Source: Escherichia coli
Lineage (GTDB): Bacteria > Pseudomonadota > Gammaproteobacteria > Enterobacterales > Enterobacteriaceae
Assembly (NCBI RefSeq): GCF_029227855.1
Contig: NZ_CP074356.1
DNA: 64,000 nt
Reading direction: 5' to 3' (one strand)
The notes under the pieces are model-generated. The model saw nothing but the letters and a program-made list of their open reading frames with translations, was not told the DNA's origin and made no database searches. Both the position numbers and the translations under genes were made by a program. Each line of letters starts with the position of its first letter. The first letter of the stretch is position 1. This document shows positions 1 through 56,577 of the stretch, in pieces.

Positions 1-272
1 ATGACGCTCTGACCGCTTTTAATCCACGGATTTTCTTTCCCGGCAATGGGTTTCACCAATAGTTGCAGCTGACTGCTGAATACGCCGCGATGATAGTTTT
101 GATAACTCACTTCCAGGTTGGATTCAGGAGCGGTCAGTTTGAGTTGCGCGTTCGCCTGCGCGACCATGTCTTCGAGATGGGTTTCAATCTTCTTGCCTGT
201 ATACCATGCGCCGCCTGTCCAGACTACGCCTAGCGCAACAATGACGCCTACCGCTACCAGCGATTTATTCAT
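1..272 (-). CDS. ydgA: YdgA-like protein, N-terminal ~90 codons only; gene runs off the window start
   Basis: Minus-strand ATG at 270-272; hand translation MNKSLVAVGVIVALGVVWTGGAWYTGKKIETHLEDMVAQ... with signal-anchor-like N-terminus; position next to manA fits E. coli synteny. Absent from ORF track because no stop lies in the window. Confidence 0.7.
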   Translation of the reverse strand, partial: MNKSLVAVGVIVALGVVWTGGAWYTGKKIETHLEDMVAQANAQLKLTAPESNLEVSYQNYHRGVFSSQLQLLVKPIAGKENPWIKSGQSV

Positions 273-372
273 AATGATTATCCATAAAATGAAATCAGGC
301 GGACTGGCCGCCTGAAGGTGTTATAAGCCTTTAATAAGCTTAGCAAGAGATGTTAATTTTTTCAGTAAGCTC

Positions 373-1548
373 TTACAGCTTGTTGTAAACACGCGCTAAA
401 CGGCCGTGGCCTTTGACAGTCACCGGTGATTCGTTGGCGGCAATAAACGCTGATTCACCCGGTTTAAGCTGTAACTGCTGAGAACCTTTCCACAGCGTTG
501 CATCGCCTTCGACGCAGAACAAAATGGCGGCACTCTGCTGGCTGATGGTGGTTTCTTTATCACTAAGGTCATGCAGCGAGAAGGCAAAATCATCCACAGG
601 AATCGGGAAGTCCAGTTCTGCACCTTGTTTCACCGGCTGGGTCAACAACTGGTTAGCCGGTTTGGCTTCGAACTTCACATTGGCAACCAGTTCCGGAATA
701 TCAATGTATTTAGGCGTCAGACCCGCACGCAGCACGTTATCGGAGTTCGCCATCACTTCCAGCGCCACGCCTTGCAGGTAAGCGTGCGGTGTTTCAGCGA
801 ACAGGAACATCGCTTCGCCAGGATTCAATTTCACCACATTCAGCAACAGCGGGGAGAACAGACCGCTGTCATCCGGGTAAAATTCAGAAATTAAACGAAT
901 TGTTTGCCACGGTTCACCCTGCTGGCTGTCAAGGGCCGATTTTAAAATCGCCAGCGCGCGGGATTTTTCTTCACCCTGCATATTCAACAGGCTGGCGAAC
1001 AGTTCGCTTAAACGTTCGGCATCAGGCTGTTGTAAAAAGTGAGCAATCGCCGGATGTGCACCTGCGACCGGCTGGAGCAGGGAGACAATCTCGGAAAACT
1101 CACGAAACGCGTTCATCGCAAGGAAAGGCGTCAGCGCAAAAACCAGCTCCGGCTTGTGGTTAGGATCTTTATAGTTACGCTCGGCGGCATCCAACGGAAT
1201 ACCTGCGGCATTTTCTTTGGCAAAACCGATTTCAGAATTGCGTTTGTTTGGATGAACCTGAATGGAGAGCGGCTGTGCTGCGCATAATACTTTGAACAGG
1301 AAAGGCAGTTCGCCAAAGCGTTTGGCAACGGCCTCTCCGAGCAGAGTCGATTTATCACTCTCAATCACATCACGCAGTGAAACGATATCTCCGGCGGCAT
1401 TCTGCACTCGTGAACTGCTTTTCGGATGTGCGCCCATCCACAGCTCGGCCATCGGCTGGCTGGACGGATTTTCCATACCATAAAGTTCAGTCAACGCCGT
1501 TTTGCTGCCCCAGGCATAGTTTTGCACTGAGTTAATGAGTTTTTGCAT
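373..1548 (-). CDS. manA: mannose-6-phosphate isomerase (391 aa)
   Basis: ORF 373..1626 (-); protein from internal Met MQKLINSVQNYAWGS... recognised as ManA; ATG at 1546-1548. Confidence 0.95.
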   Translation of the reverse strand: MQKLINSVQNYAWGSKTALTELYGMENPSSQPMAELWMGAHPKSSSRVQNAAGDIVSLRDVIESDKSTLLGEAVAKRFGELPFLFKVLCAAQPLSIQVHPNKRNSEIGFAKENAAGIPLDAAERNYKDPNHKPELVFALTPFLAMNAFREFSEIVSLLQPVAGAHPAIAHFLQQPDAERLSELFASLLNMQGEEKSRALAILKSALDSQQGEPWQTIRLISEFYPDDSGLFSPLLLNVVKLNPGEAMFLFAETPHAYLQGVALEVMANSDNVLRAGLTPKYIDIPELVANVKFEAKPANQLLTQPVKQGAELDFPIPVDDFAFSLHDLSDKETTISQQSAAILFCVEGDATLWKGSQQLQLKPGESAFIAANESPVTVKGHGRLARVYNKL

Positions 1549-1746
1549 GATCAATCCCTGTTTTAATGTGGAAATTAATCCCGCTATTAAAGCAAGAATC
1601 CTACGGGAAGTAACCTGGAGCCGCAAAAAGTCGTACTAGTCTCAGTTTTTGTTAAAAAAGTGTGTAGGATATTGTTACTCGCTTTTAACAGGGCAACGGA
1701 ACACCCGCCCAGAGCATAACCAAACCAGGCAGTAAGTGAGAGAACA

Positions 1747-3393
1747 ATGTCAAACAAACCCTTTCATTATCAGGCACCTTTTCCACTCAAAAAAGATGAT
1801 ACTGAGTATTACCTGCTAACCAGCGAACACGTTAGCGTATCTGAATTTGAAGGGCAGGAGATTTTGAAAGTCGCACCCGAAGCGTTAACTTTGTTGGCGC
1901 GTCAGGCGTTTCATGATGCGTCATTTATGCTGCGTCCGGCTCACCAACAACAGGTGGCCGACATTCTGCGTGACCCGGAAGCCAGCGAAAATGATAAATA
2001 TGTGGCGCTGCAATTCCTGCGCAACTCCGACATCGCCGCAAAAGGCGTTCTGCCAACCTGTCAGGATACCGGCACCGCGATTATTGTTGGTAAAAAAGGG
2101 CAGCGTGTATGGACCGGTGGCGGTGATGAAGTGGCGCTGGCACGCGGTGTCTATAACACTTATATCGAAGATAATCTGCGCTACTCGCAAAACGCGCCGC
2201 TGGATATGTATAAAGAGGTGAATACCGGCACCAATCTACCAGCGCAGATCGATCTTTATGCCGTTGATGGCGACGAGTACAAATTCCTCTGTATCGCCAA
2301 AGGTGGCGGTTCGGCAAACAAGACGTATCTCTATCAGGAAACCAAAGCGTTACTGACGCCGGGGAAACTGAAAAATTACCTGGTTGAGAAGATGCGCACG
2401 CTGGGTACGGCGGCCTGTCCTCCGTATCATATTGCGTTCGTTATTGGTGGAACTTCTGCAGAAACGAACCTTAAAACGGTGAAACTGGCTTCCGCTAAAT
2501 ACTATGATGAACTGCCAACGGAAGGGAATGAGCACGGACAGGCGTTCCGCGATGTGGAACTGGAAAAAGAATTGCTGATCGAAGCGCAAAATCTTGGTCT
2601 GGGTGCGCAGTTTGGCGGTAAATACTTCGCTCACGACATCCGCGTGATTCGCCTGCCACGTCACGGCGCATCCTGCCCGGTCGGTATGGGCGTCTCCTGT
2701 TCTGCTGACCGTAATATCAAAGCAAAGATCAACCGTCAGGGGATTTGGATCGAAAAACTGGAACATAATCCAGGCAAATATATCCCGGAAGAGCTGCGCA
2801 AAGCGGGAGAAGGCGAAGCGGTGCGCGTTGACCTTAACCGTCCGATGAAAGAGATCCTCGCACAGTTGTCGCAGTATCCCGTTTCTACACGCTTATCGCT
2901 GAATGGCACGATTATCGTTGGTCGTGATATTGCTCACGCCAAACTGAAAGAGCGGATGGATAACGGCGAAGGGCTGCCGCAGTATATTAAAGATCATCCG
3001 ATTTACTACGCGGGTCCGGCCAAAACGCCGGAAGGTTATGCCTCCGGTTCTCTTGGCCCAACGACCGCCGGACGGATGGATTCTTATGTCGATCAACTGC
3101 AAGCGCAGGGCGGAAGTATGATCATGCTGGCGAAAGGCAACCGCAGCCAGCAGGTGACGGATGCCTGTAAAAAACACGGCGGTTTCTACCTCGGTAGTAT
3201 CGGTGGTCCGGCAGCTGTATTGGCGCAGGGAAGTATTAAGAGCCTGGAATGTGTTGAATATCCGGAACTGGGAATGGAAGCCATCTGGAAAATTGAAGTG
3301 GAAGATTTCCCGGCATTTATCCTTGTGGATGATAAAGGAAATGACTTCTTCCAGCAGATACAACTCACACAGTGCACCCGCTGTGTGAAATAA
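1747..3393 (+). CDS. fumA: class I fumarate hydratase (Fe-S), 548 aa
   Basis: ORF track 548 aa [18 protein letters not shown]...; full-length FumA. Confidence 0.96.
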
Positions 3394-3398
3394 ACAGA

Positions 3399-3422
3399 GC
3401 CGCCCTTCGGGGCGGTTTTTTT
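3399..3422 (+). terminator. Rho-independent terminator after fumA
   Basis: GC hairpin gccgcccttcggggcgg followed by a T-run immediately after the fumA stop. Confidence 0.6.
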
Positions 3423-3535
3423 ACATGGCACGAAAGACCAAACATTTGTTATCAAATAGTAAATAATAAGTGAGCTAAAAGTTGCTTAACGAAAGCAAAA
3501 CAGAAAGAAAAAATTAATCAGGTGAGGAGCAGGCC

Positions 3536-7243
<3,708 letters not shown>

Positions 7244-7246
7244 CGC

Positions 7247-7966
7247 TTATTCCCATGCATGAGGCGCAAAAAGATAGCCTTTGTTACGCACAGTTTTAAT
7301 GCGATAAGGTTCTGCGGCGTTATCGAGCAGTTTTTTTCTTAACCGCGAAATAGCCACGTCCACGCTACGATCCAGTCCGTCATAACTGACGCCACGTAAA
7401 TTTTTCAGCAATGCATCGCGGTCCATGATTTGCCCAGCATGGGTAGCTAATTCCCACAATAATTCGAAATCAGCTGTCGAGAGCGAGATTTCAGTGTTAG
7501 CCAGGGTGACTACGCGGTTGATAGGATCGATGGTCAACGTGCCGAAATGCAGGGCTTTGTAGGGAGTCAGAGACGTTTCCTGAAGACCTTTGGTCAGCGT
7601 GGCTTGCTCATTCTGACGCAAATGCAAACGTAAACGCGCTAACAAAACAGCAGGGGGCGTCGTTTTGAGAATATAGTCGCAGGCACCCATTTCCAGTGCC
7701 AGGATGTGGTTCATATCGCTATCGAGAGAGGTTAGAAGAACAATCGGTCCGGACCACTTTGCGCGTAAATCACGACAAATGGTCATGCCGTCCTTGCCTG
7801 GTAGCATGATGTCGAGTAACACCAAATCCGGATTTTCTCGCAAAATAGTTTCTTCGGCCCGGTCGCCGCGCGGTTCCACGGTAACCTGCATATCATGTTT
7901 TGCCAGGTACGCAGCAATCAGTGAACCGACTTCCGCATCATCTTCCACAAATACGATAGTGTTCAT
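7247..7966 (-). CDS. rstA: OmpR-family response regulator RstA (239 aa)
   Basis: ORF 7247..8026 (-); start taken at internal ATG 7964-7966 (MNTIVFVEDD...); receiver domain plus winged-helix C-terminus. Confidence 0.92.
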   Translation of the reverse strand: MNTIVFVEDDAEVGSLIAAYLAKHDMQVTVEPRGDRAEETILRENPDLVLLDIMLPGKDGMTICRDLRAKWSGPIVLLTSLDSDMNHILALEMGACDYILKTTPPAVLLARLRLHLRQNEQATLTKGLQETSLTPYKALHFGTLTIDPINRVVTLANTEISLSTADFELLWELATHAGQIMDRDALLKNLRGVSYDGLDRSVDVAISRLRKKLLDNAAEPYRIKTVRNKGYLFAPHAWE

Positions 7967-8094
7967 AACATTCACGGTAGATATAAAAACGTCACAATAC
8001 ACCGCGCTGTTTTTACTTACTATCAATCGTTTCTAAACAAGGTTTCATCAGGTATTCTACTGATGACTTGTTATGGAAGTGTTAAGGTAAAAAG

Positions 8095-46345: not shown

Positions 46346-46585
46346 ATGATCCGAATTATGATTAGAATATTTTCTTTGACATTCGTTGCTTGCGCTGGCT
46401 TTGCTGCATATCACTTCAATAGTGTGCCATTGATGTTCACTTCTGGTAGCTTTCTTGTAACATTTTTAGGTACATTTATTGTTAATAAAAAAAGTTCAGG
46501 GCATACAATAATTCAAAAAAGCGGTAGCCATTCAAAAAATAATCATACGGTCGTTTTTGGAAATAATGAAAACAAGCGAGGCTGA
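46346..46585 (+). CDS. small two-TM membrane peptide (79 aa), first gene of the AT-rich cassette
   Basis: ATG at 46346 with AGGA upstream; MIRIMIRIFSLTFVACAGFAAYHF...LMFTSGSFLVTFLGTFIV then polar tail; stop is 2 nt before the next start. Confidence 0.5.
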   Translation: MIRIMIRIFSLTFVACAGFAAYHFNSVPLMFTSGSFLVTFLGTFIVNKKSSGHTIIQKSGSHSKNNHTVVFGNNENKRG

Positions 46586-46587
46586 TC

Positions 46588-47184
46588 ATGGTTGGTGTTA
46601 CTCAAAGGTCAGGGAATTACTCACGTAATGTGCAGGTGGTTGTCGATTCTAACTCTGTTGATATTATAAAGTCTCCATCGATTTTTATGGATCTTGTTGG
46701 TATTTTAGTTGATTCGAATGTTATTGATCCTCGTACAAACAATGACTACGAGCCATATGATATTGAGAATAAAATAGACTTCAATGATGTTATAAAACAT
46801 AGAGAACGTATTGAAGGGTTCTATCTATATTCTTCGATGATAGATAAAGCGTATGAAACATTAAATGAAAGTATGCCTACTGCTAAGGAAACGGCACTGA
46901 AAAGCATCAATTCACGATATCTTGATTGTCAAGGAGATTTATTGCTTAAACATAGAGAAGCGTATAAGAGCTGCAAGGATGCTCAGGAACGGAATAATTT
47001 AAAGATTCAATTGGTAAGAGAGTTTGCAGATTGGATAATAGACAGTGTAATAGAGCACATCATTAAGAAATGCTTAAATTCTCTTATGGCAATGAATTAC
47101 ACAAGCGAAGAAATCGAATGCCATGCTTCTTTTATCGTTTATCATGCATTCGTAGAGTGTAAGATTCTGGAAAAACCAATATGA
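46588..47184 (+). CDS. hypothetical protein (198 aa), second gene of the AT-rich cassette
   Basis: ATG 46588 with GAGG SD; stop overlaps the next start (ATGA); no motif I recognise. Confidence 0.65.
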   Translation: MVGVTQRSGNYSRNVQVVVDSNSVDIIKSPSIFMDLVGILVDSNVIDPRTNNDYEPYDIENKIDFNDVIKHRERIEGFYLYSSMIDKAYETLNESMPTAKETALKSINSRYLDCQGDLLLKHREAYKSCKDAQERNNLKIQLVREFADWIIDSVIEHIIKKCLNSLMAMNYTSEEIECHASFIVYHAFVECKILEKPI

Positions 47185-47417
47185 TTATCTCTGATGTAAC
47201 AAAACCAAGCCAAACCTTGTATTACCTGGGAGCTCGGTTATTAGAATGCATGAGTTCAAATGCTTATTCGTATGTTGATATTATAGACTTGTATAATGAA
47301 TTCAAATCTAAAAATAACAACTCTTCATTCACGCAATATATTTACACTTTAAATTGGCTATATTTATTAGGCCTGGTTGATGCTAACGAAAATGGAGATT
47401 TGATATTATGTTTTTGA
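47181..47417 (+). CDS. hypothetical small protein (78 aa), third gene of the AT-rich cassette
   Basis: ATG 47181 overlapping the upstream stop; 3' end overlaps the ATPase start by 10 nt. Confidence 0.6.
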   Translation: MIISDVTKPSQTLYYLGARLLECMSSNAYSYVDIIDLYNEFKSKNNNSSFTQYIYTLNWLYLLGLVDANENGDLILCF

Positions 47418-49132
47418 AACGGCTAATAGTCAGTTCTTTCAGGCTTGGAGTGATTCGTGATATCGAATTTCACATTGGCGTTAATTTGATTATTGACCGA
47501 AACACCTCCAGCAAAGAGCAAACTGGAAATGGTGTGGGAAAAACTACTGTATTAAGAGCTTTAGATTTTTGTTTTGGAGCAGAACAACTGAATTTTTATA
47601 CCGATCCTGAATTCAAGAAAGAAAATTCGGTTATAAAAAATTATTTGATAGAGAACGAGATTGAGTTTTGTTTAATTCTCACAAAAGATTTGAATAATAA
47701 AACTGCACCAGTAATAAAAATTAAGCGTAAAATTACATCTGAGACTAATAAAACGAAGGTTATAGCCTCAATAAATGAAGAGTCCTATACGAAGGCTAAA
47801 GATTTCAACGAGGCTTTAAAAAGAACATTATATCTTGATTCCGCGATAAAACCGACCATACGAGAGATTATGGGACGTGTTATTCGAAATACGCATGACA
47901 AGATGTCGAACGCATTAAAAACGATAAAAATGGGTTCTAATACACAATATGAAACGTTAAATCTGTTTATGTTTGGGTTCGGTAACTCACAGATTCTGGA
48001 TGAAAAACAGTCAGTGACTAAAGCCTATAAACTGGCGAAATCCGATTATGAAGTAATTACTCGCCATCGCTCAAAGAATGCTTTGGAACAAGCTATTGCA
48101 ATTATAAATAGAGATATTATAGCACAAGAAGAGTTAATTTCTAATTTTCAAGTGGCAGACTCTTATAATGATATGCTTGCTGAGTTAAATGAGTTAAAAA
48201 TTAAAATTAGTGAAGTTTCTATCACACTATCATCTTTGGAGTTTAAGCAAAAATTAAACGATAAGGCTATACTAGATCTGGAAAAAAGTCATGAAAATAT
48301 AAATACACTAGATCTACAGAAGTTGTACTTAGAAGCAACTGATCGGTTAGGTAACTTAAACAAAGAGTTTACTGAGCTACTTTCGTTTCATAATAAAATG
48401 CTTGTAAAAAAAGCTGAGTTTATTAGAAAACAAATGCAGCCAGTGCTGCAAGAAATTTCCAAATATAAAGATGAACTAAATAATTTATTGACTCAAGAAT
48501 CAGAGCTTTTAAAGAGTTTGTCTTCGCATGGGACATTGGCAGACCTGCAAATAATGCAAAAAAAATTAAATTCATTATTTGAAGAAAAAGGTGGGCTTGA
48601 AGCTGGACTACTTCAAATCCAAGAGATGGAGAACAACTTTAATATACTGAAAGCAAAGTTTAATGATGTGTCAGATAGATTAAAATCTAAACTTGACGAT
48701 TTTAACAAACGTCTTGCGCTATTCAATTCCTATTTTTCTTTATATACTAAAAAATTATATCAGGATGAATATATTCTTTCCTATAAAGATTCCTCCGGTT
48801 CTTTCGTTTTTACCATTGAACCTTTAGGAACTTTGCTCACATCAGGTAATCAGGGAGAAGGAAAAAAGAAAGCCCAGGTTGCCTCTTTAGATTTTGCCTA
48901 TTTATCTGTCCAGGAGTCTTTAGAAGCCAGAACACCACGTTTTATAGCTCATGATGGAATTGAGGCAATTCATGTAAATCAAATAAATAAGTTATTCGAG
49001 ATAGCTTCGGGGATTAATGGTCAATATATATTGGCTATTCTTAAAGACAAGTTGGAGAATATTGATCAAGACTTCATCAATAATAGTGTTGTGCTTGAGC
49101 TTGGGGAGGACGATAAGTTTTTTAGGCTTTAA
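47408..49132 (+). CDS. SMC/Rad50/ABC-type coiled-coil ATPase (574 aa), fourth gene of the AT-rich cassette
   Basis: N-terminal P-loop TGNGVGKTTVLRALDFCFG (RecF/SMC-type Walker A); ~300-aa heptad-rich central region; C-terminal TSGNQGEG (signature-like) followed by RFIAHDGIEAIH (Walker-B/D-loop-like); GGAG SD. Confidence 0.8.
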   Translation: MFLKRLIVSSFRLGVIRDIEFHIGVNLIIDRNTSSKEQTGNGVGKTTVLRALDFCFGAEQLNFYTDPEFKKENSVIKNYLIENEIEFCLILTKDLNNKTAPVIKIKRKITSETNKTKVIASINEESYTKAKDFNEALKRTLYLDSAIKPTIREIMGRVIRNTHDKMSNALKTIKMGSNTQYETLNLFMFGFGNSQILDEKQSVTKAYKLAKSDYEVITRHRSKNALEQAIAIINRDIIAQEELISNFQVADSYNDMLAELNELKIKISEVSITLSSLEFKQKLNDKAILDLEKSHENINTLDLQKLYLEATDRLGNLNKEFTELLSFHNKMLVKKAEFIRKQMQPVLQEISKYKDELNNLLTQESELLKSLSSHGTLADLQIMQKKLNSLFEEKGGLEAGLLQIQEMENNFNILKAKFNDVSDRLKSKLDDFNKRLALFNSYFSLYTKKLYQDEYILSYKDSSGSFVFTIEPLGTLLTSGNQGEGKKKAQVASLDFAYLSVQESLEARTPRFIAHDGIEAIHVNQINKLFEIASGINGQYILAILKDKLENIDQDFINNSVVLELGEDDKFFRL

Positions 49133-49279
49133 GATTTGTAATTTGATAGATATGTAGATATCATTTTTCTCGCTCAAAACTGACAGTCAGATTTGAGCGA
49201 ATTGCTTATGTAAGTATTTCGCAGAATCATGCCATTTATATTTATTAGAACATACGTACTTTAAATGTGGGAGGCTGTC

Positions 49280-49366
49280 ATGTTGGTTCTTAAATGTTCG
49301 CTGACTATTGCGGTGGTGCGGGTAATTTATTGTTCTGTTATTCTTATGGATCGCCTTTCTGACTGA
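49280..49366 (+). CDS. possible 28-aa hydrophobic peptide
   Basis: ATG 49280 preceded by GGGAGG at spacing 6; MLVLKCSLTIAVVRVIYCSVILMDRLSD; could be coincidental. Confidence 0.25.
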   Translation: MLVLKCSLTIAVVRVIYCSVILMDRLSD

Positions 49367-49577
49367 TTTCATATTGGCGAGATAACGGGAGTTAAGTAGA
49401 ATGCCTGCGGGTGCTTGAGGCTATCTGCCTCGGGCATGAACACCAACGGCAGATAGAGAAAAGCCCCAGTTAACATTACGCGTCCTGCAAGACGCTTAAC
49501 ATTAATCTGAGGCCAATTTCATGCTAGACACATGTAGGTTAGCCTCTTACGTGCCGAAAGGCAAGGAGAAGCAGGCT

Positions 49578-49733
49578 ATGAAGCAGCAAAAGGCGATGTT
49601 AATCGCCCTGATCGTCATCTGTTTAACCGTCATAGTGACGGCACTGGTAACGAGGAAAGACCTCTGCGAGGTACGAATCCGAACCGGCCAGACGGAGGTC
49701 GCTGTCTTCACAGCTTACGAACCTGAGGAGTAA
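49578..49733 (+). CDS. hokD: Hok/Gef-family membrane toxin HokD (51 aa)
   Basis: ATG 49578 preceded by AAGGAGAAG; MKQQKAMLIALIVICLTVIVTALVTRKDLCEVRIRTGQTEVAVFTAYEPEE; ORF track shows an in-frame upstream extension from 49521. Confidence 0.86.
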   Translation: MKQQKAMLIALIVICLTVIVTALVTRKDLCEVRIRTGQTEVAVFTAYEPEE

Positions 49734-49740
49734 GAGACCC

Positions 49741-49830
49741 GGCGAGGGAGAAATCCCTCGCCACCTCTGATGTGACAGGCATCCTCAACGCACCCGCACT
49801 TAACCCGCTTCGGCGTGTTTTTGTTTTTAT
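49741..49830 (+). terminator. stem-loops and T-run downstream of hokD (putative 3' fold-back/terminator region)
   Basis: Hairpin ggcgaggga-gaaa-tccctcgcc at 49741-49762, then cgcttcggcg followed by tgtttttgtttttatttt. Confidence 0.4.
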
Positions 49831-49949
49831 TTTCAACGCGTTTGAAGTTCTGGACGGTGCCGGAATAGAATCAAAAATACTTAAGTAGCGCGCAGGGATA
49901 AGAGGGATGTTCCCTTAAAGGGGAGAGCTAATTATCCGGAAGGATTCTG

Positions 49950-50201
49950 ATGATGAACATCGAAGAACTGCGTAAAATTTTTTGTGAAGATGGCCTCTAT
50001 GCTGTGTGCGTTGAAAATGGAAATCTTGTTAGTCATTACCGCATTATGTGTTTGCGAAAGAATGGGGCTGCGTTAATTAATTTTGTGGATGGTCGAGTGA
50101 CAGACGGATTTATCTTGCGCGAAGGTGAGTTTGTCACTTCATTACAGGCACTGAAAGAGATCGGAATAAAAGCAGGCTTTTCAGCTTTTGCAGAAGAATA
50201 A
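49950..50201 (+). CDS. rem: Rem protein (83 aa), function unknown
   Basis: ORF track 83 aa MMNIEELRKIFCEDGLYAVCVENGNLVSHYRIMCLRK...; conserved Qin gene next to hokD. Confidence 0.8.
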   Translation: MMNIEELRKIFCEDGLYAVCVENGNLVSHYRIMCLRKNGAALINFVDGRVTDGFILREGEFVTSLQALKEIGIKAGFSAFAEE

Positions 50202-50267
50202 ACTCATCTACAATCTTGCGCGGGGCTGAACTCCCGCTGAGTAACACCGTGCCACCGGAGAAAACCG

Positions 50268-50546
50268 ATGGCACGCAACGTAAAATATTACAATTCTGAT
50301 AATTCGCCCGTTCTTGCCTGCACGCACGAGCGGTATTCTCACGCATTCAAGTCTGAATGGTTCCAGCACCCTCCATGCACTGAAGAGCAGGCTGAATGGA
50401 TAATTCAGTGTTACCGCAGGCGCGGATACGAGGTTAAGAAAGCCCTTAGTCTCGACTACCGTCACTGGATAATCTCAGTCAGATTGCCTTACTCCGAACG
50501 CCCACCGCGTCCGTCCCGTACATTCCAGCAACGCATCTGGAGGTAA
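50268..50546 (+). CDS. hypothetical prophage protein (92 aa)
   Basis: ATG 50268 with GGAG upstream; stop 1 nt before the ydfU start. Confidence 0.5.
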   Translation: MARNVKYYNSDNSPVLACTHERYSHAFKSEWFQHPPCTEEQAEWIIQCYRRRGYEVKKALSLDYRHWIISVRLPYSERPPRPSRTFQQRIWR

Positions 50547-50547
50547 C

Positions 50548-51597
50548 GTGCGGGTATTACTTCGACCTGTTCTGGTACCGGAACTCGGGCTGGTGGTCGT
50601 TAAGCCGGGCCGTGAATCCATGCCGGTATTCCACAATACCCGGGTACTGGTGGAGCCGGAACCGAAAAGCATGCGTAATCTGCCGTCCGGGGTCGTTCCT
50701 GCCGTTCGCCAGCCGCTGGTGGAAGACAAAACATTGCTGCCGTTTTTCAGTAACGCACGGGTGATTCGTGCTGCTGGTGGTGCTGGTGCATTGTCTGACT
50801 GGCTGTTGCGCCATATTAAATCCTGCCAGTGGCCACACGGCGATTATCATCACAGCGAAACCGTCATTCACCGTTATGGTACCGGCGCAATGGTGTTGTG
50901 CTGGCACTGCGACAACCAGCTGCGTGACCAGACATCCGAATCACTCGAGCAAGTTGCTCATCAAAACCTGTCAGCATGGATGATTGACGTCATCGGTCAC
51001 GCAATAAGCGGTACGCAGGAGCGTGAATTATCTCTGGCTGAATTATCCTGGTGGGCGGTCCGCAATCAGGTGGCGGACGCGCTACCGGAAGCGGTATTAC
51101 GTCGTTCGCTGGGGTTGCGTGCGGAAAAAATCCGCTCAATGTACCGCGAAAGCGACATCGTACCGGGAGAGCAGACCGCCACCAGCATATTGAAACAGCG
51201 CACAAAAAATCTTGCACCGTTGCCTCACGCCCACCAGCAACAAAACCCATCACAGGAAAAGACGGTGGTAAGCATCACCGTTGATCCAGAGTCTCCGGAA
51301 TCTTTCATGAAGCTGCCTAAACGTCACCGTTGGGTTAAGGAGAAATACACACGCTGGGTTAAGACACAGCCGTGTGCTTGCTGCGGGATGCCAGCCGACG
51401 ATCCGCATCATCTGATTGGTCACGGGCAGGGCGGAATGGGAACCAAAGCACATGATCTCTTTGTGTTGCCTTTGTGCAGAAAGCATCACGACGAGTTGCA
51501 TACGGATACCGTGGCATTTGAAGAGAAGTATGGCTCCCAACTGGAGCTGATTTTTCGATTTATCGATCGCGCGCTGGCAATTGGTGTGCTGGCCTAA
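50548..51597 (+). CDS. ydfU: DUF968-family prophage protein YdfU (349 aa)
   Basis: ORF track 349 aa, GTG start after GGAGG; C-terminal Cys/His cluster CACCGMP...[10 protein letters not shown]...CRKHHDELH. Confidence 0.87.
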
Positions 51598-51614
51598 TTT
51601 TGTGGAGTAAGTTG

Positions 51615-51992
51615 ATGCGTGATATTCAGATGGTTCTTGAGCGTTGGGGGGCATGGGCGGCTAATAATCATGAAGATGTGACCTGGTCGTCCATTGCCGC
51701 TGGTTTTAAGGGATTAATTCCTTCAAAAGTAAGATCTCGTCCGCAATGCTGTGACGATGACGCGATGATCATTTGTGAATGTATGGCTCGCCTGAGAAAA
51801 AACAACAGCGATTTACATGGTTTATTGGTGGACTATTATGTCGGCGGCATGACTTTTATGGCGCTTGCACGTAAGCATGGGCGATCTGATTGTTGGGTTG
51901 GCAGGATGCTCCAGAAAGCTGAGGGCGTAGTGGAGGGCATGCTGATGGTATTGGATCTCCGATTGGAGATGGATGCTGATTGTTCGAAATAA
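51615..51992 (+). CDS. late-gene antiterminator Q (QuuD-type), about 126 aa
   Basis: ORF 51600..51992 (TTG); ATG at 51615 after GGAG; [34 protein letters not shown]... recognised as the short Q family of DLP12 QuuD. Confidence 0.85.
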
Positions 51993-51999
51993 TTAAAGG

Positions 52000-52060
52000 A
52001 AAAGTTGCTGTCTGATTGTCATTAGTCTAACATTTTAAATGTTGGAATCGCAACGTAGTT
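52000..52060 (+). promoter_or_regulatory. putative late promoter / qut region (pR'-like), not precisely mapped
   Basis: AT-rich segment with TTGTCA and TAAATG/TATCAT candidate hexamers between the Q stop and a strong terminator. Confidence 0.3.
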
Positions 52061-52081
52061 ATTATCATATAACAGCTTGTT

Positions 52082-52109
52082 TCCTGATTTAGCCAGCCTC
52101 CCCAAAGGC
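52082..52109 (+). terminator. Rho-independent terminator (tR'-like) downstream of Q
   Basis: ccagcc-tccccaaa-ggctgg hairpin followed by TTTTTTT. Confidence 0.65.
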
Positions 52110-52147
52110 TGGTTTTTTTCTAATAAGTATCATTTCGGGTAGGGATT

Positions 52148-52672
52148 TTATTGTTTAACCCATAATAATTCATTGACATTGAATCCCAACTTTTGAGCGG
52201 TTCGCACATAGTCTGCTTTTACTTTATCTGGAATAGTTGGGGTCCTTGCCAGAATCCATAGGTATTCTCTGTTCGAACCACTAACAAGAGCATACTTATA
52301 CTCATCATCCAGTTTGATTACATTATAGCCACCATAGAAGGGGCCAAAAAACGAAACCTTCAACGCTGCAGTTTTAGTATCTCCAGTAAAGTATGCTTTA
52401 CCTTCGCTCTCGCTCCATTTATTTTTCGTTGGATCGTATCCACGGTTAAGTACACGAATCCCTCCGTCGTTCCGTTTTCCATAAGTAGCGCTGACCTGTT
52501 CCAGACCACGTTCGAACCGGTTCTCGAGGCGAGCTATTTCATACCATTTTCCGAGGTAGCGGTTGGCGTCAAAATTTGTAATCGGCTGCACACCTTTAGG
52601 TGGTGTCGGGGCCTTACATGCTATAAGAGTGAAAGAGAGTGCAATGCCAGTCAACACAGGCCATAACTTCAT
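52148..52672 (-). CDS. outer-membrane lipocalin Blc homologue (about 174 aa), prophage cargo
   Basis: ORF 52148..52678 (-); ATG at 52670-52672 with AGGA SD; lipobox LIAC; lipocalin motifs NFDANRYLGKWYEIARL, YNVIKLDDEYKYALVSG; AT-rich. Confidence 0.85.
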   Translation of the reverse strand: MKLWPVLTGIALSFTLIACKAPTPPKGVQPITNFDANRYLGKWYEIARLENRFERGLEQVSATYGKRNDGGIRVLNRGYDPTKNKWSESEGKAYFTGDTKTAALKVSFFGPFYGGYNVIKLDDEYKYALVSGSNREYLWILARTPTIPDKVKADYVRTAQKLGFNVNELLWVKQ

Positions 52673-52864
52673 AATCAATCCTGTACTTTTGATAGTTGAG
52701 AGTAAGTATGAAAGATAGATGATTACGACCGATCACTTAAAGAACTTTCATACTATATTAGGAATAGTCCATAACAGAAAAATTGTCAGTGATGACGTCA
52801 GAAAGGCAATTTATTCCGTGCACTACACAGTTTATGTGTTAATGAATTAGTCAAGGGGGAGGAT

Positions 52865-53824
52865 ATGATAAAAAAACCTGTGATTGGAATCAGCGGTTGT
52901 TTGGCCGGTTCTGCTGTTCGTTTTGATGGTGGTCACAAAAGAGCTGACTTTTTAATGGACAAATTAGTGGAATGGGTAACATTCAGACCAGTATGTCCGG
53001 AAATGGCTATAGGGCTGCCAGTTCCGCGTCCTGCTCTACGTCTTGTGCGCTCGAAGCAAGGAAATATACGGATGTGTTTCAGCCACGACCAGAATGAGGA
53101 TGTGACAGAGAGAATGACAGAGTTTAGTCGTTCTTATATGCACAAATTAAAGGATGTATCGGGGTTTGTGGTTTGTGCTAAATCTCCCAGCTGTGGCATG
53201 GAGCGCGTGCGTGTCTATGATGAAAATGGTAATCGAGGTCGTAAAGATGGAGTGGGACTATTTACGAGCACTTTGATGGAAAAGTTTTCCTGGCTACCGG
53301 TTGAAGAGGATGGGCGATTACATGATCCAGTGCTTCGTGAGAATTTTGTTGAAAGAGTTTTTGCTTTGCATGAGCTCAATCACCTTTACAAGGAGAAATT
53401 ATCAAGAAGAGAGTTATTAGCTTTTCATAGTCGTTATAAGCTTCAGTTGTTGGCGCATAGTCAGGCAGGCTATAAAGATATGGGACCATTTGTGGCTGCA
53501 ATACACGAGTGGGCGGACCTTGAATCATACTTTGAGGTGTATCGTGATAAGCTGATGGCGATTCTCAGAAAACCTGCATCACGTAAAAATCACACGAATG
53601 TGCTGATGCATATACAGGGGTATTTTAGTAATTACTTAAGTACACGCCAGCGTAAAGAGTTGACCGAGGTTATACTTAACTATCGCTTTGGCACATTGCC
53701 TCTTCTTGCGCCGTTGACTCTGCTGAAGCATTATCTGGGTGAGTATCCTAATGATTACTTGCTTACACAGAATTACTTCGATCCCTATCCGGAAGAACTG
53801 GCTCTAAGACTGATGGTGAATTAA
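52865..53824 (+). CDS. two-domain DUF523 (TudS-like Fe-S thio-nucleobase desulfidase) plus DUF1722 protein, RudS-like (319 aa)
   Basis: ORF track 319 aa; GGGGGAGG SD; N-terminal GISGCLAGSAVRFDGGHK with further Cys at FRPVCPEM and VVCAKSPSCGM (three-Cys Fe-S pattern); C-terminal half YbgA-like. Confidence 0.75.
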   Translation: MIKKPVIGISGCLAGSAVRFDGGHKRADFLMDKLVEWVTFRPVCPEMAIGLPVPRPALRLVRSKQGNIRMCFSHDQNEDVTERMTEFSRSYMHKLKDVSGFVVCAKSPSCGMERVRVYDENGNRGRKDGVGLFTSTLMEKFSWLPVEEDGRLHDPVLRENFVERVFALHELNHLYKEKLSRRELLAFHSRYKLQLLAHSQAGYKDMGPFVAAIHEWADLESYFEVYRDKLMAILRKPASRKNHTNVLMHIQGYFSNYLSTRQRKELTEVILNYRFGTLPLLAPLTLLKHYLGEYPNDYLLTQNYFDPYPEELALRLMVN

Positions 53825-54230
53825 CTGTATGCGATATCATCTGAAAGTGATGAGTTCCTGTATGCAGGATATTTACAATCGTAAAAACTACACTATGATA
53901 CCCATAGTGTCAGTTTGTATAAAAATCCTGTTCACGCTGAAGAAAACATTGAGATGCAATTTAATGTTGGTAAACATACCAGCCCCAAAAGATTTTATTC
54001 AATCTGTTTTTATATGAAGATATTTCAAGTGAATATTAAGAGTATATAATATTATTATTGCACGCAGCTATTATAATATAACAGATTAGTTTAATGATTT
54101 GTTTTTTGTGAGTTAAACACATGGTTTTATAGTTGTGATGCAATGAGATTTTCCTTATTGTTGAACTGGCGAATATTGATTTTCCACCTATACTTACCTG
54201 GTGTAACCCCAGTGATATCAGGTGGATAAT

Positions 54231-54944
54231 ATGCCATACATATGTTCTGTCATTTTGGTGTTGAACTCGTTTGGTGTCCGAATTGGTAAAGAAGATATTT
54301 TGTTTAAAAAAGGAAGTGCTGTCCTCATCGAATACAATTTAAAAGATCTTTTTTCGTCAAATACAGATCATCTAATGATCGTAGATGTTGAGGAGAAAAC
54401 AGTTAATGATTTCTTTAAAAACTACACACTCTCACCTTTTTCTGTAAGAAGGTTTTATCCGGCATACTTGATAGTAGAATGTGAAGGTTTTTCTTTGTTA
54501 AAGAACTTGGTTGCATGCTTGAATTGTGATAGCAAAACCGTGGATGTGGTTAGAAATCAAATATCACTTGCATGTCTTGCTGTCTTATCTTCAGAGAAAA
54601 TAGTGCAAAGTTTTTTGTTCGGAAGTCTTAATAGCTTAGGTTGTAAAGTTAAGGCTATTATTCACTCGGATATCTCAGCGTCATGGAGACTTTGTGATAT
54701 ATCTTCAAGATTATATATGAGCGAGAGTTTGTTAAAAAGAAAATTAAAAGACGAAGGGGTATCGTTTAGTAGATTAATTCTTGAAGAACGAATGATGATG
54801 GCGCAAAGATTATTAATTTACAGTAACCATACTGTCGGCAAGGTGGCGGGAATATGCGGGTATGACAATGCATCATATTTTGTAAGTGTTTTTAGAAGAT
54901 ATTTTGGTGTGCCTCCGCACCAATATTTATCAAGATTTTCTTAG
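54231..54944 (+). CDS. AraC/XylS-family transcriptional regulator (about 237 aa), prophage cargo
   Basis: ORF 54222..54944 (GTG); ATG at 54231; C-terminal HTH ...HTVGKVAGICGYDNASYFVSVFRRYFGVPPHQY; AT-rich with long AT-rich upstream region. Confidence 0.85.
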   Translation: MPYICSVILVLNSFGVRIGKEDILFKKGSAVLIEYNLKDLFSSNTDHLMIVDVEEKTVNDFFKNYTLSPFSVRRFYPAYLIVECEGFSLLKNLVACLNCDSKTVDVVRNQISLACLAVLSSEKIVQSFLFGSLNSLGCKVKAIIHSDISASWRLCDISSRLYMSESLLKRKLKDEGVSFSRLILEERMMMAQRLLIYSNHTVGKVAGICGYDNASYFVSVFRRYFGVPPHQYLSRFS

Positions 54945-55135
54945 AAGATATGATGTGATGGCATTTTATAAAGTTGTTTTTTTGAAGTGTAAGATTATAC
55001 GATATTTTTAGCTACGCCAGAATAATTGCTGGCGTTTTTCTTTTTGAATAGATGTTCGGGCCTTACGCTAATGTAATTTTTTTCCTTCTTCGAACCAAAC
55101 CGTGTACACCATCCGTTATCTGCGGAGGTGAGGCT

Positions 55136-55351
55136 ATGAAATCCATGGATAAGTTAACAACGGGCATCGCCTACGGCACCTCTGCAGGCAGTGCTGGCTA
55201 CTGGTTTTTACAGTTGCTCGATAAAGTCACGCCCTCACAGTGGGCGGCAATAGGTGTATTGGGTAGTCTGGTATTTGGCATGCTGACGTATCTGACTAAC
55301 CTTTATTTCAAGATTAAAGAAGACAGGCGTAAGGCTGAGAGAGGAGAGTAA
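55136..55351 (+). CDS. essQ: phage holin (71 aa)
   Basis: ORF 55052..55351; ATG 55136 after GGAGGTGAGG; [30 protein letters not shown]...[13 protein letters not shown]. Confidence 0.88.
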
Positions 55352-55355
55352 TCCA

Positions 55356-55700
55356 ATGACTCAAGTATACGAACTGGTTGTGAAAGGAGTCCGTAATTTT
55401 GAGAATAAAGTTGCGGTAACTTTAGCCTTACAGGACAAAGAACGCTTTGACGGTGAGATTTTTGACCTTGATATCACTATGGATCGTGTTGAAGGTGCTG
55501 CACTGGAGTTTTATGAGGCAGCAGCCAGAAGGAGAATCAGACAGGTGTTCTTGGATGTTGCTGCCGGGTTATGTGAAGGGGATGAGCAGTCGCCGGAAAA
55601 GCGCCCCATAATTTTAGAGGCGCAGAATGTGTGGATAACCTACAAAGGAAAGCTACCAGGAAGAATTACTGGTTATCTGAAGACTCCGCCGGAATGTTAA
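55356..55700 (+). CDS. hypothetical protein between holin and endolysin (114 aa)
   Basis: ATG 55356 after GAGGAGAG, 5 nt after the holin stop. Confidence 0.5.
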   Translation: MTQVYELVVKGVRNFENKVAVTLALQDKERFDGEIFDLDITMDRVEGAALEFYEAAARRRIRQVFLDVAAGLCEGDEQSPEKRPIILEAQNVWITYKGKLPGRITGYLKTPPEC

Positions 55701-55938
55701 TTTTAACAGCATATTTCTCTTCCAGTAATGCCACCAGCCACTTGAAGGAATTTTGTTGTTCCTGGGACCATTTGGGGCTGTGTGATTCAAGCTGGAGCGA
55801 TGCCAGTGTTGGTTGCATTTGTTCCCTGGGAATTGACAATGCCAGATATGAAAATGCGACAGTAAGGGCATTAACATCATCCCGAAGCCTGGAAATGCAG
55901 TCGAGCAACTCCTGAAGAGAAATGGTGTTATTGTCCAT
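55666..55938 (-). CDS. hypothetical protein, antisense to the lysis cassette (90 aa)
   Basis: Minus-strand ATG at 55936-55938 preceded by AAGAGGA; 3' end overlaps the convergent 114-aa ORF by 35 nt. Confidence 0.45.
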   Translation of the reverse strand: MDNNTISLQELLDCISRLRDDVNALTVAFSYLALSIPREQMQPTLASLQLESHSPKWSQEQQNSFKWLVALLEEKYAVKINIPAESSDNQ

Positions 55939-56043
55939 AAATAATCCTCTTGATTGTATTTACCTGTTCTCCGCCTGATTCAACAGGTTGGGACAGATAA
56001 ACATATCCTGGGTTCAGAAATCGATAAATCCTGATAAATATCC

Positions 56044-56577
56044 ATGAACGTAAAAGTCAAATACGGCCTGTCGGCTGCCGTTCTGGCGCTGATTGGTGCT
56101 GGTGCATCTGCTCCCCAGATACTTGACCAGTTTCTGGACGAAAAAGAAGGTAACCACACAATGGCATACCGTGATGGTTCCGGCATATGGACCATCTGTC
56201 GGGGTGCCACAGTGGTGGATGGAAAACCCGTTTTTCCCAATATGAAACTGTCGAAGGAAAAATGCGACCAGGTTAACGCTATTGAGCGTGATAAGGCTCT
56301 GGCATGGGTGGAGCGCAATATTAAAGTACCACTGACCGAACCACAAAAAGCGGGTATCGCGTCATTTTGTCCCTATAACATTGGCCCCGGTAAGTGTTTT
56401 CCGTCGACGTTTTATAAACGGCTGAATGCTGGTGATCGTAAAGGTGCATGCGAGGCGATTCGCTGGTGGATTAAGGACAGGGGGCGTGATTGCCGCATTC
56501 GTTCAAATAACTGTTACGGTCAGGTTATTCGTCGTGATCAGGAGAGCGCGTTAGTGTGCTGGGGGATCGACAGATAA
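56044..56577 (+). CDS. rrrQ: SAR-type endolysin (lysozyme), 177 aa
   Basis: ORF track 177 aa; N-terminal signal-anchor-release segment LSAAVLALIGAGASAP; motifs shared with lambdoid lysozymes (WTICRG, LNAGDRKGACEAIRWW, CWG). Confidence 0.82.
   Translation: MNVKVKYGLSAAVLALIGAGASAPQILDQFLDEKEGNHTMAYRDGSGIWTICRGATVVDGKPVFPNMKLSKEKCDQVNAIERDKALAWVERNIKVPLTEPQKAGIASFCPYNIGPGKCFPSTFYKRLNAGDRKGACEAIRWWIKDRGRDCRIRSNNCYGQVIRRDQESALVCWGIDR

Follow-up and report, generated by a model that had tools for sequence, protein, structure and literature searches.

The cargo region between Q and the lysis genes

The window analysed here, a 64,000-nucleotide stretch of Escherichia coli chromosome (GCF_029227855.1, contig NZ_CP074356.1), carries a complete-looking lambdoid prophage beside rspB, with genes from integrase through tail. 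The local order is DUF968 gene, Q, terminator, lipocalin gene, rudS, an AT-rich spacer, an AraC-type regulator gene, a second terminator and the lysis genes (Table 1), the latter starting with an S21-type holin gene followed by a DUF1327 gene and a lysozyme gene. The lipocalin open reading frame was listed as 52148..52678 on the minus strand, and the ATG at 52672 yields the 174-residue product; mechanically, a TTG two codons further 5' could also serve as the start. A Shine-Dalgarno sequence, AGGA, precedes the ATG by 6 nt (52682-52679). The RefSeq annotation of E. coli strain 2D, whose locus is identical, gives the same coordinates for the gene.

Table 1. Features of the prophage cargo region, with positions in the window
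Feature	Position	Strand	Basis and remarks
Antiterminator Q gene, Phage_antitermQ family	51615..51992	+	Pfam E 3.4e-50; RefSeq, identical locus
Intrinsic terminator after Q, tR'-like	52091..52121	+	9-bp G+C-rich stem, 6-nt loop, T7 run
Lipocalin lipoprotein gene	52148..52672	-	174 aa + stop; Blc subfamily, clade A (MerR/rudS-linked lineage)
Signal peptide with lipobox L-I-A-C, residues 1-19	52616..52672	-	Pattern match; sequence read directly
Divergent lipocalin-rudS intergenic region, 192 bp	52673..52864		Shine-Dalgarno AGGA and -10-like motifs, motif level only
rudS (TudS/DUF523 + DUF1722, 319 aa)	52865..53824	+	Pfam; 92% identical to RudS_vir of phage 1H12
AraC-type regulator gene, full-length AppY homologue, low G+C	54231..54944	+	31% identity to AppY, E 5e-43
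Second intrinsic terminator, at the end of the cargo region and just 5' of the holin gene	55014..55045	+	Terminator scan
Class II (S21-type) holin gene, start of the lysis cassette	55136..55351	+	Pfam Phage_holin_2_1 E 5e-35; RefSeq essD

The Q protein is 84% identical to QuuD of DLP12 over 120 aa (blastp). The hairpin behind Q (52091-52114) and its T-run are located 99 nt past the Q stop codon and 27 nt from the lipocalin stop codon. Its predicted fold has a free energy of -14.9 kcal/mol (z -3.8), and none of 200 shuffled sequences reached equal stability. The terminator is kept in phage 1H12 and strain PK8261, in both alongside the same Q allele. It is poor in the reverse direction because the minus strand has no T-run after the stem. 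A first-pass annotation had placed the lipocalin gene directly after tR' and antisense to late transcription. Orientation is as claimed, since Q, holin, lysis genes and terminase all lie on the plus strand and the lipocalin gene on the minus strand. In case of tR', a strong and rightly placed terminator is present, and the putative label is reasonable by position. An inspection by eye of the sequence near Q gave no convincing candidate for pR' or qut, the best being TTGCTG-17-TAACAT with a match at 7/12 positions.

The Q-to-holin interval is a classical lambdoid cargo slot, and in DLP12 of E. coli K-12 the porin gene nmpC is found antisense at the equivalent spot after quuD. The lipocalin gene is located between conserved phage modules and is dispensable, as is typical of a moron: the flanks were matched in 4837 genomes and the entire Q-to-holin cassette in just 952 of them (952 of the 5426 complete E. 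coli genomes). A direct junction of Q and its terminator with the holin segment was found at no place in any complete E. coli genome at a coverage of at least 80%, so the insertion boundaries stay undefined by that route. The Q allele appears to be tied to the cassette, with about 1011 genomes matching the Q query at 95% identity or more compared with 1041-1134 genomes carrying the prophage lipocalin gene.

A predicted lipoprotein of the Blc subfamily

The prophage protein matches the Pfam family Lipocalin_2 (PF08212) over residues 35-174 with 147.9 bits (gathering score 24, E 2.6e-43) and additionally the family Lipocalin (E 2.2e-05), showing that 52148-52672 is no chance open reading frame. 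NCBIfam assigns it to the Blc subfamily (NF007786; 312.4 bits against a cut-off of 267), with residues 1-174 matched to a profile of 176 positions, and crystallised E. coli Blc sequences in the PDB are matched at E 5e-68. The N-terminus, MKLWPVLTGIALSFTLIAC followed by Lys, fits the PROSITE-type lipobox pattern [LVI][ASTVI][GAS]C with Cys19 as the predicted site of lipidation and a lysine in the n-region. From Lys at position +2, the mature protein is predicted to be carried to the outer membrane by Lol.

Aligned with K-12 Blc, the protein shows 59% identity and 79% positives with zero gaps. Conserved between the two are GxW, FFGPFYGGYNVI and YLWILxRTP as well as a common 16-residue run, ALKVSFFGPFYGGYNV. 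Across an alignment of 12 sequences, the SCR1 residues G41-K-W43 and the SCR3 residue R143 (ILARTP) are invariant. An alignment of 12 sequences was also the input for an AlphaFold (AF2) model (pLDDT 75.9, pTM 0.74), whose elements are eight strands, a short helix near the N-terminus (36-39) and a C-terminal helix (149-161). Foldseek superimposed this model on the Blc structures 1QWD, 2ACO and 3MBT with TM scores of 0.78-0.90 and rmsd values of 1.8-2.4 A. Profile matches, the modelled barrel with its C-terminal helix and the SCR motifs all place the protein in the lipocalin superfamily. The lipoprotein with LIAC lipobox and conserved lipocalin motifs proposed in the first-pass annotation is thus well supported by the pattern match with Cys19, the Pfam score and GxW.

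Two paralog lineages share the name Blc

The prophage lipocalin is much closer to proteins of other Enterobacterales, with identities of 72-82% (Enterobacter, Cedecea, Klebsiella variicola, Scandinavium, Phytobacter, Kluyvera and Budvicia), than to E. coli Blc. We surveyed gene neighbourhoods using one genome per species and counted 10 loci of these closer relatives, here called clade A, and 25 loci of clade B, which includes E. coli blc and has identities of 53-63% to the prophage protein. Clade B genes always lie within the arrangement frdD-(ampC)-blc-gdx-ecnB, and frd/gdx neighbours were present at 25/25 clade B loci compared with 0/10 clade A loci. Conversely, a MerR and/or RudS neighbour was seen at 8/10 clade A and 0/25 clade B loci (Fisher p 2e-6). 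The majority of the clade A genes are divergent from a gene for an MlrA-like MerR regulator and/or from rudS. The MerR gene is followed in one arrangement by a transthyretin-like gene together with rudS (319 aa) and in the other by a SnoaL-SDR-FAD oxidase-DUF1365-CFA synthase-DUF2878 operon. In Cedecea lapagei and Klebsiella variicola, the lipocalin gene is divergent from MerR and an operon of SnoaL, SDR, FAD oxidase, DUF1365, CFA-synthase-like and DUF2878 genes (locus 1-6534).

Enterobacter cloacae DSM 26481 encodes both paralogs, which are 79% and 56% identical to the prophage lipocalin. In a neighbor-joining tree, the phage alleles (bootstrap 100) are nested in clade A (bootstrap 81). Judged by sequence and neighbourhood, the prophage lipocalin is therefore a member of a paralog lineage absent from E. 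coli chromosomes and not a copy of host blc. The view that the prophage carries a mobile copy of chromosomal blc has to be given up with respect to the word copy, given 59% identity, a position in the separate clade A and MerR/rudS instead of frd/gdx synteny, while the gapless alignment upholds its Blc-like character. As the phage gene stems from a lineage missing in E. coli chromosomes, lysogeny adds a new type of protein rather than a higher dose of an existing one. Further, what databases call Blc in Enterobacterales corresponds to two paralog lineages with different and mutually exclusive gene neighbourhoods.

Co-capture of lipocalin and rudS

The prophage lipocalin and rudS genes are collinear with their closest metagenomic relatives at nucleotide identities of 73% and 66%, respectively (blastn). 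Approximately 1.46 kb containing merR and the transthyretin-like gene are missing from the prophage, with the 192-bp intergenic region in their place. This collinearity indicates that both genes entered the phage as one block from which the regulator was excluded. A divergent rudS/lipocalin pair without MerR is also found on the chromosome of Kluyvera genomosp. 1. A merR gene of the ancestral type was matched in 64/5426 E. coli genomes, in 61 of these on plasmids. The MlrA protein of the host is a paralog of the clade A MerR regulators with 39% identity.

The full, putatively ancestral cluster of lipocalin, MerR, uraH-like, rudS and ATPase genes is itself mobile. On the E. coli resistance plasmid PCN061p6 (locus 1-7986), the one plasmid inspected, genes for a lipocalin, an MlrA-like MerR regulator, a uraH/transthyretin-like protein, RudS and an AAA ATPase adjoin IS26 and aph(3')-Ia; the lipocalin gene of this plasmid is truncated. 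The closest metagenomic relative has the gene order of PCN061p6 plus a transposase and SymE.

RudS is an eraser (desulfidase) of 4-thiouridine (s4U) in tRNA, and RudS_vir of phage 1H12 was tested experimentally (Jamontas et al. 2024, PMC11417400). Although E. coli is described as lacking RudS in that study, the lipocalin cassette brings rudS into roughly 950-1130 of the 5426 complete E. coli genomes, so that the lipocalin-rudS pair is present in about 20% of them.

The AraC-type gene downstream of rudS has a different history. Its product is homologous over the full length to AppY, a regulator of the DLP12 prophage, and among NCBIfam models most resembles YdeO and GadX, with scores under their cut-offs. 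No AraC-type gene was seen beside a chromosomal clade A lipocalin gene at any locus surveyed. Since it has no counterpart there and its G+C content of 31-35% is much lower, the cargo represents at least two acquisitions. The regulator might act on acid- or stress-response genes of the host or on its cassette neighbours; of five homologous E. coli prophage loci that we inspected, two have a frameshift in the regulator gene. A 21-bp near-perfect palindrome, ACACTATGATACCCATAGTGT, is located at 53890-53910 in the AT-rich spacer that separates rudS from this gene and overlaps promoter-like hexamers on both strands. It might serve as an operator or terminate transcription weakly in both directions.

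Distribution and maintenance

Host blc, in the frd-ampC-blc-gdx locus, occurs once per genome in 5424/5426 complete E. coli genomes, whereas copies of the prophage gene with 90-100% identity are present in 1134/5426 (about 21%), with up to three places per genome and at varied chromosomal positions among genomes. The exact prophage protein is present on at least 1000 public contigs. Viable plaque-forming phages also carry the lipocalin, namely 1H12 and relatives (96.6% aa identity) and IdasGreatGrand (98.9%). Both 1H12 and IdasGreatGrand possess the same three-gene cassette, with different nin and lysis modules. That the chromosome has its own blc elsewhere and that the prophage gene is extra and mobile, as proposed beforehand, agrees with these counts and with the existence of viable phages.

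The gene is not new as an object. Of 19 lambda-like phages from the infant gut, more than half were listed with a moron named blc, for a bacterial lipocalin (Mathieu et al. 2020, PMC6969025), and the prophage protein is phrog_2809 in PHROGs and carries the NCBI names lipocalin family protein or Blc. On its own, it is a routine annotated cargo gene, and our additions to the known picture are the paralog split and the lipocalin-rudS linkage alone. No phenotype of a phage-borne blc is reported in the literature we found. A further Blc-like lipoprotein gene, 53.5% identical, was independently acquired by Morganella phage IME1369_01 (3465-3980 of the inspected locus), where it is flanked by the lysis genes and the gene for the small terminase subunit and has late-gene orientation. 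Temperate phages of Enterobacterales have hence taken up lipocalin cargo more than once.

The two main phage allele groups differ by 21 synonymous and 6 nonsynonymous changes (dS about 0.2). Between these groups, dN/dS is 0.07-0.10 for the lipocalin and 0.11-0.14 for rudS. In an even sample of 30 rows taken down the ranking of matches, 27/29 real matches were full length. One allele is interrupted by an IS3 element and truncated alleles exist as well, while in a decayed prophage, whose Q has been replaced by IS debris, both lipocalin and rudS are intact. Disruption in homologous prophages, which would have spoken against a lysogenic-conversion candidate, is thus mostly absent. The low dN/dS points to purifying selection on the lipocalin gene. 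Together with the intact copies, it argues for a function in the phage or the lysogen, which by itself does not prove expression.

Upstream region and regulation

In 9/10 clade A relatives, CTACACTT(AA) is located about 33 nt 5' of the ATG and represents a good match to a sigmaS-type extended -10 element. A MAFFT alignment places the -10-like CATACTTAC of the prophage (52710-52702) at the position equivalent to the sigmaS-type CTACACTTAA of the clade A relatives. A second element is found about 80 nt upstream and reads TATAGT in the prophage (52757-52752) and TATACT in the relatives. A blastn-short comparison of the 192-bp region with the MerR-lipocalin regulatory DNA of the relatives gave nothing significant (best E 0.64), and no minus-strand promoter upstream of the lipocalin gene passed a sigma-70 consensus scan. 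The positional agreement is no more than suggestive of ancestral MerR-lipocalin regulatory DNA being kept in the intergenic region. With respect to the own promoter and terminator of a moron, the antisense orientation, Shine-Dalgarno sequence and -10-like motifs are in place; the hairpin has no T-run in the lipocalin direction and the scan returned no promoter.

Proposed function and alternatives

We consider it probable that this lambdoid-prophage moron encodes a Blc-subfamily lipocalin of the outer membrane that is functional, is expressed from its own promoter in the lysogen and protects envelope lipids. The precursor would be exported via Sec, lipidated at Cys19 by Lgt, LspA and Lnt and, owing to Lys at +2, transferred by the Lol system to the inner leaflet of the outer membrane, where the pocket of the beta-barrel may bind hydrophobic lipid species as in Blc. 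Ligands of Blc are fatty acids and lysophospholipids, and 2ACO is the complex of Blc with vaccenic acid. The ligand of Blc is itself under debate, with lysophospholipid, fatty acid and heme as candidates (PMC8177097). Expression in the lysogen would start from the lipocalin's own promoter, possibly of a stationary-phase or sigmaS type, with the post-Q terminator shielding the gene from constitutive pR' transcription. During lytic growth, Q-antiterminated late transcription would converge on the gene and oppose its expression. The likely benefit for the lysogen would be added protection of envelope lipids under stress, and the label lysogenic conversion, used in the first-pass annotation, is an inference.

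Which stress this might be is suggested by the neighbourhood. The SnoaL-to-DUF2878 lipid-modification operon suggests that clade A lipocalins take part in a membrane-lipid stress regulon. On a neighbourhood basis, the conserved linkage to rudS and to this cfa-like operon points to near-UV or photo-oxidative stress, which is the most speculative step of the proposed mechanism. Blue-light responses of Vibrio are mediated by MerR-like regulators (PMC5241685), and our literature search found nothing that directly ties lipocalins to LitR, ChrR or DUF1365/cfa light regulons. A tentative extension, which we regard as somewhat unlikely at present, is that lipocalin and rudS form one stress module for near-UV/photo-oxidative defence that is normally controlled by an MlrA-like MerR regulator, is sometimes joined to the cfa operon and was captured by the phage without its regulator. 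If this were true, RudS would erase photosensitive s4U from tRNA, lipids at the outer membrane that are damaged or in the lyso form would be dealt with by the lipocalin, and lysogeny would confer a coordinated near-UV/photo-oxidative defence on about one in five E. coli strains. It would also provide the first physiological handle on the role of Blc-family lipocalins. In any case, the pairing with rudS yields a testable near-UV/oxidative lipid-stress hypothesis for a family whose function has been unclear since 1995.

Among the alternatives, a silent passenger fares best. In this reading, the gene came along with rudS or the Q module, was parted from its MerR activator and is of no consequence in E. 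coli. The missing regulator, the negative sigma-70 scan, the IS3-disrupted and truncated alleles and the similar prevalence of Q allele and cassette gene would all fit such a passenger. We nevertheless judge it improbable, given the dN/dS of the phage allele groups at appreciable synonymous divergence, the full length of about 90% of sampled copies, the survival of the gene in a decayed prophage and the retention of a Shine-Dalgarno sequence and a positionally conserved -10-like element.

Still less probable is a phage-exclusion or envelope-defence factor acting by receptor masking or a block of DNA entry (such as T5 Llp or Cor of phi80/HK022) or by serum resistance similar to Bor/Iss. Placement and orientation resemble nmpC (antisense after quuD, DLP12) and bor/iss (antisense after Rz), morons of lambda-like phages are mostly membrane proteins (PMC6969025) and the independent acquisition in IME1369_01 would suit such a role. 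However, the nearest relatives of the prophage lipocalin are chromosomal genes of housekeeping type in non-phage contexts, with strongly conserved cores that include the 16-residue run shared with Blc, and the protein resembles none of the known exclusion proteins. The periplasmic orientation assumed for Blc (Bishop 1995/2000) is a poor fit with receptor masking.

We give hardly any credence to the two remaining alternatives. A role in the lytic cycle, for example in modulating lysis or disrupting the outer membrane, is rejected on grounds of orientation and dispensability despite the close holin, endolysin and spanin genes: the gene runs antisense to late transcription, two cargo genes and a terminator separate it from the holin gene, and it is missing from most lambdoid prophages with related Q and lysis genes (952 of 4837 flank-matching genomes). 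A transduced duplicate of chromosomal blc which merely raises the Blc dose, as might be read from the shared NCBIfam subfamily, gapless alignment and identical lipobox position, is contradicted by tree and synteny, with MerR/rudS and never frd-ampC-gdx as neighbours; moreover, a megablast search with host blc hits a single place per genome in nearly every case, so the two genes do not cross-match.

Comparison with known systems

E. coli Blc (b4149; 1QWD, 2ACO, 3MBT) and the prophage lipocalin agree in length class, Cys19 lipobox, motifs, fold and NF007786 membership. They differ in paralog clade, in gene context (frdD-ampC-blc-gdx-ecnB compared with MerR/rudS) and in being a core gene and prophage cargo, respectively. 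The +2 residue is Ser in E. coli Blc and Lys in the prophage protein. Residue 84 is Asn in the prophage lipocalin and is the site of the G84E SNP of Blc, which was linked to gut inflammation (PMC13192267). Chromosomal clade A lipocalins, which are likewise named lipocalin family protein or Blc, share 72-82% identity and mostly a divergent MerR gene and/or rudS. In contrast to their loci, the prophage has neither MerR nor the transthyretin-like gene, occupies the Q-holin slot and has gained an AppY-like regulator downstream.

A phage counterpart is the blc moron of 1H12/Lambda_ev phages with the same Q-blc-rudS-araC-holin cassette. It belongs to a different allele group, and its flanks are rusA-ylcG and a lambda-type lysis region with bor, whereas DUF968 and an S21-type holin flank the cargo of the prophage. 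The antisense genes nmpC of DLP12 and bor/iss also encode outer-membrane proteins beside the lysis cassette, and nmpC directly follows the QuuD terminator as the lipocalin gene follows the Q terminator. Their folds and functions are unrelated to those of the lipocalin, one being a porin and the other a serum-resistance lipoprotein. Eukaryotic stress lipocalins such as ApoD and plant temperature-induced lipocalin (TIL, 8WB2) have a homologous fold (TM about 0.7; TIL E 8e-19) at an identity of only 28-32%, and a functional analogy with the prophage protein is an inference. ApoD and TIL are linked to protection against lipid peroxidation.

Other features of the prophage

In an Rfam scan of 49000-56500, only sok passed (49409-49583, plus strand; 115 bits, gathering score 59), and a match below the threshold at the post-Q terminator (28.6 bits against 50) was dismissed. 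This hok/sok type I toxin-antitoxin locus lies 5' of DUF968-Q, and hokD and rem are annotated there. According to RefSeq, the early region of the prophage encodes ABC-three-component-system proteins and a DUF2326 protein at about 46346-49132, in the interval from the replication genes to hokD; these are likely anti-phage defence cargo.
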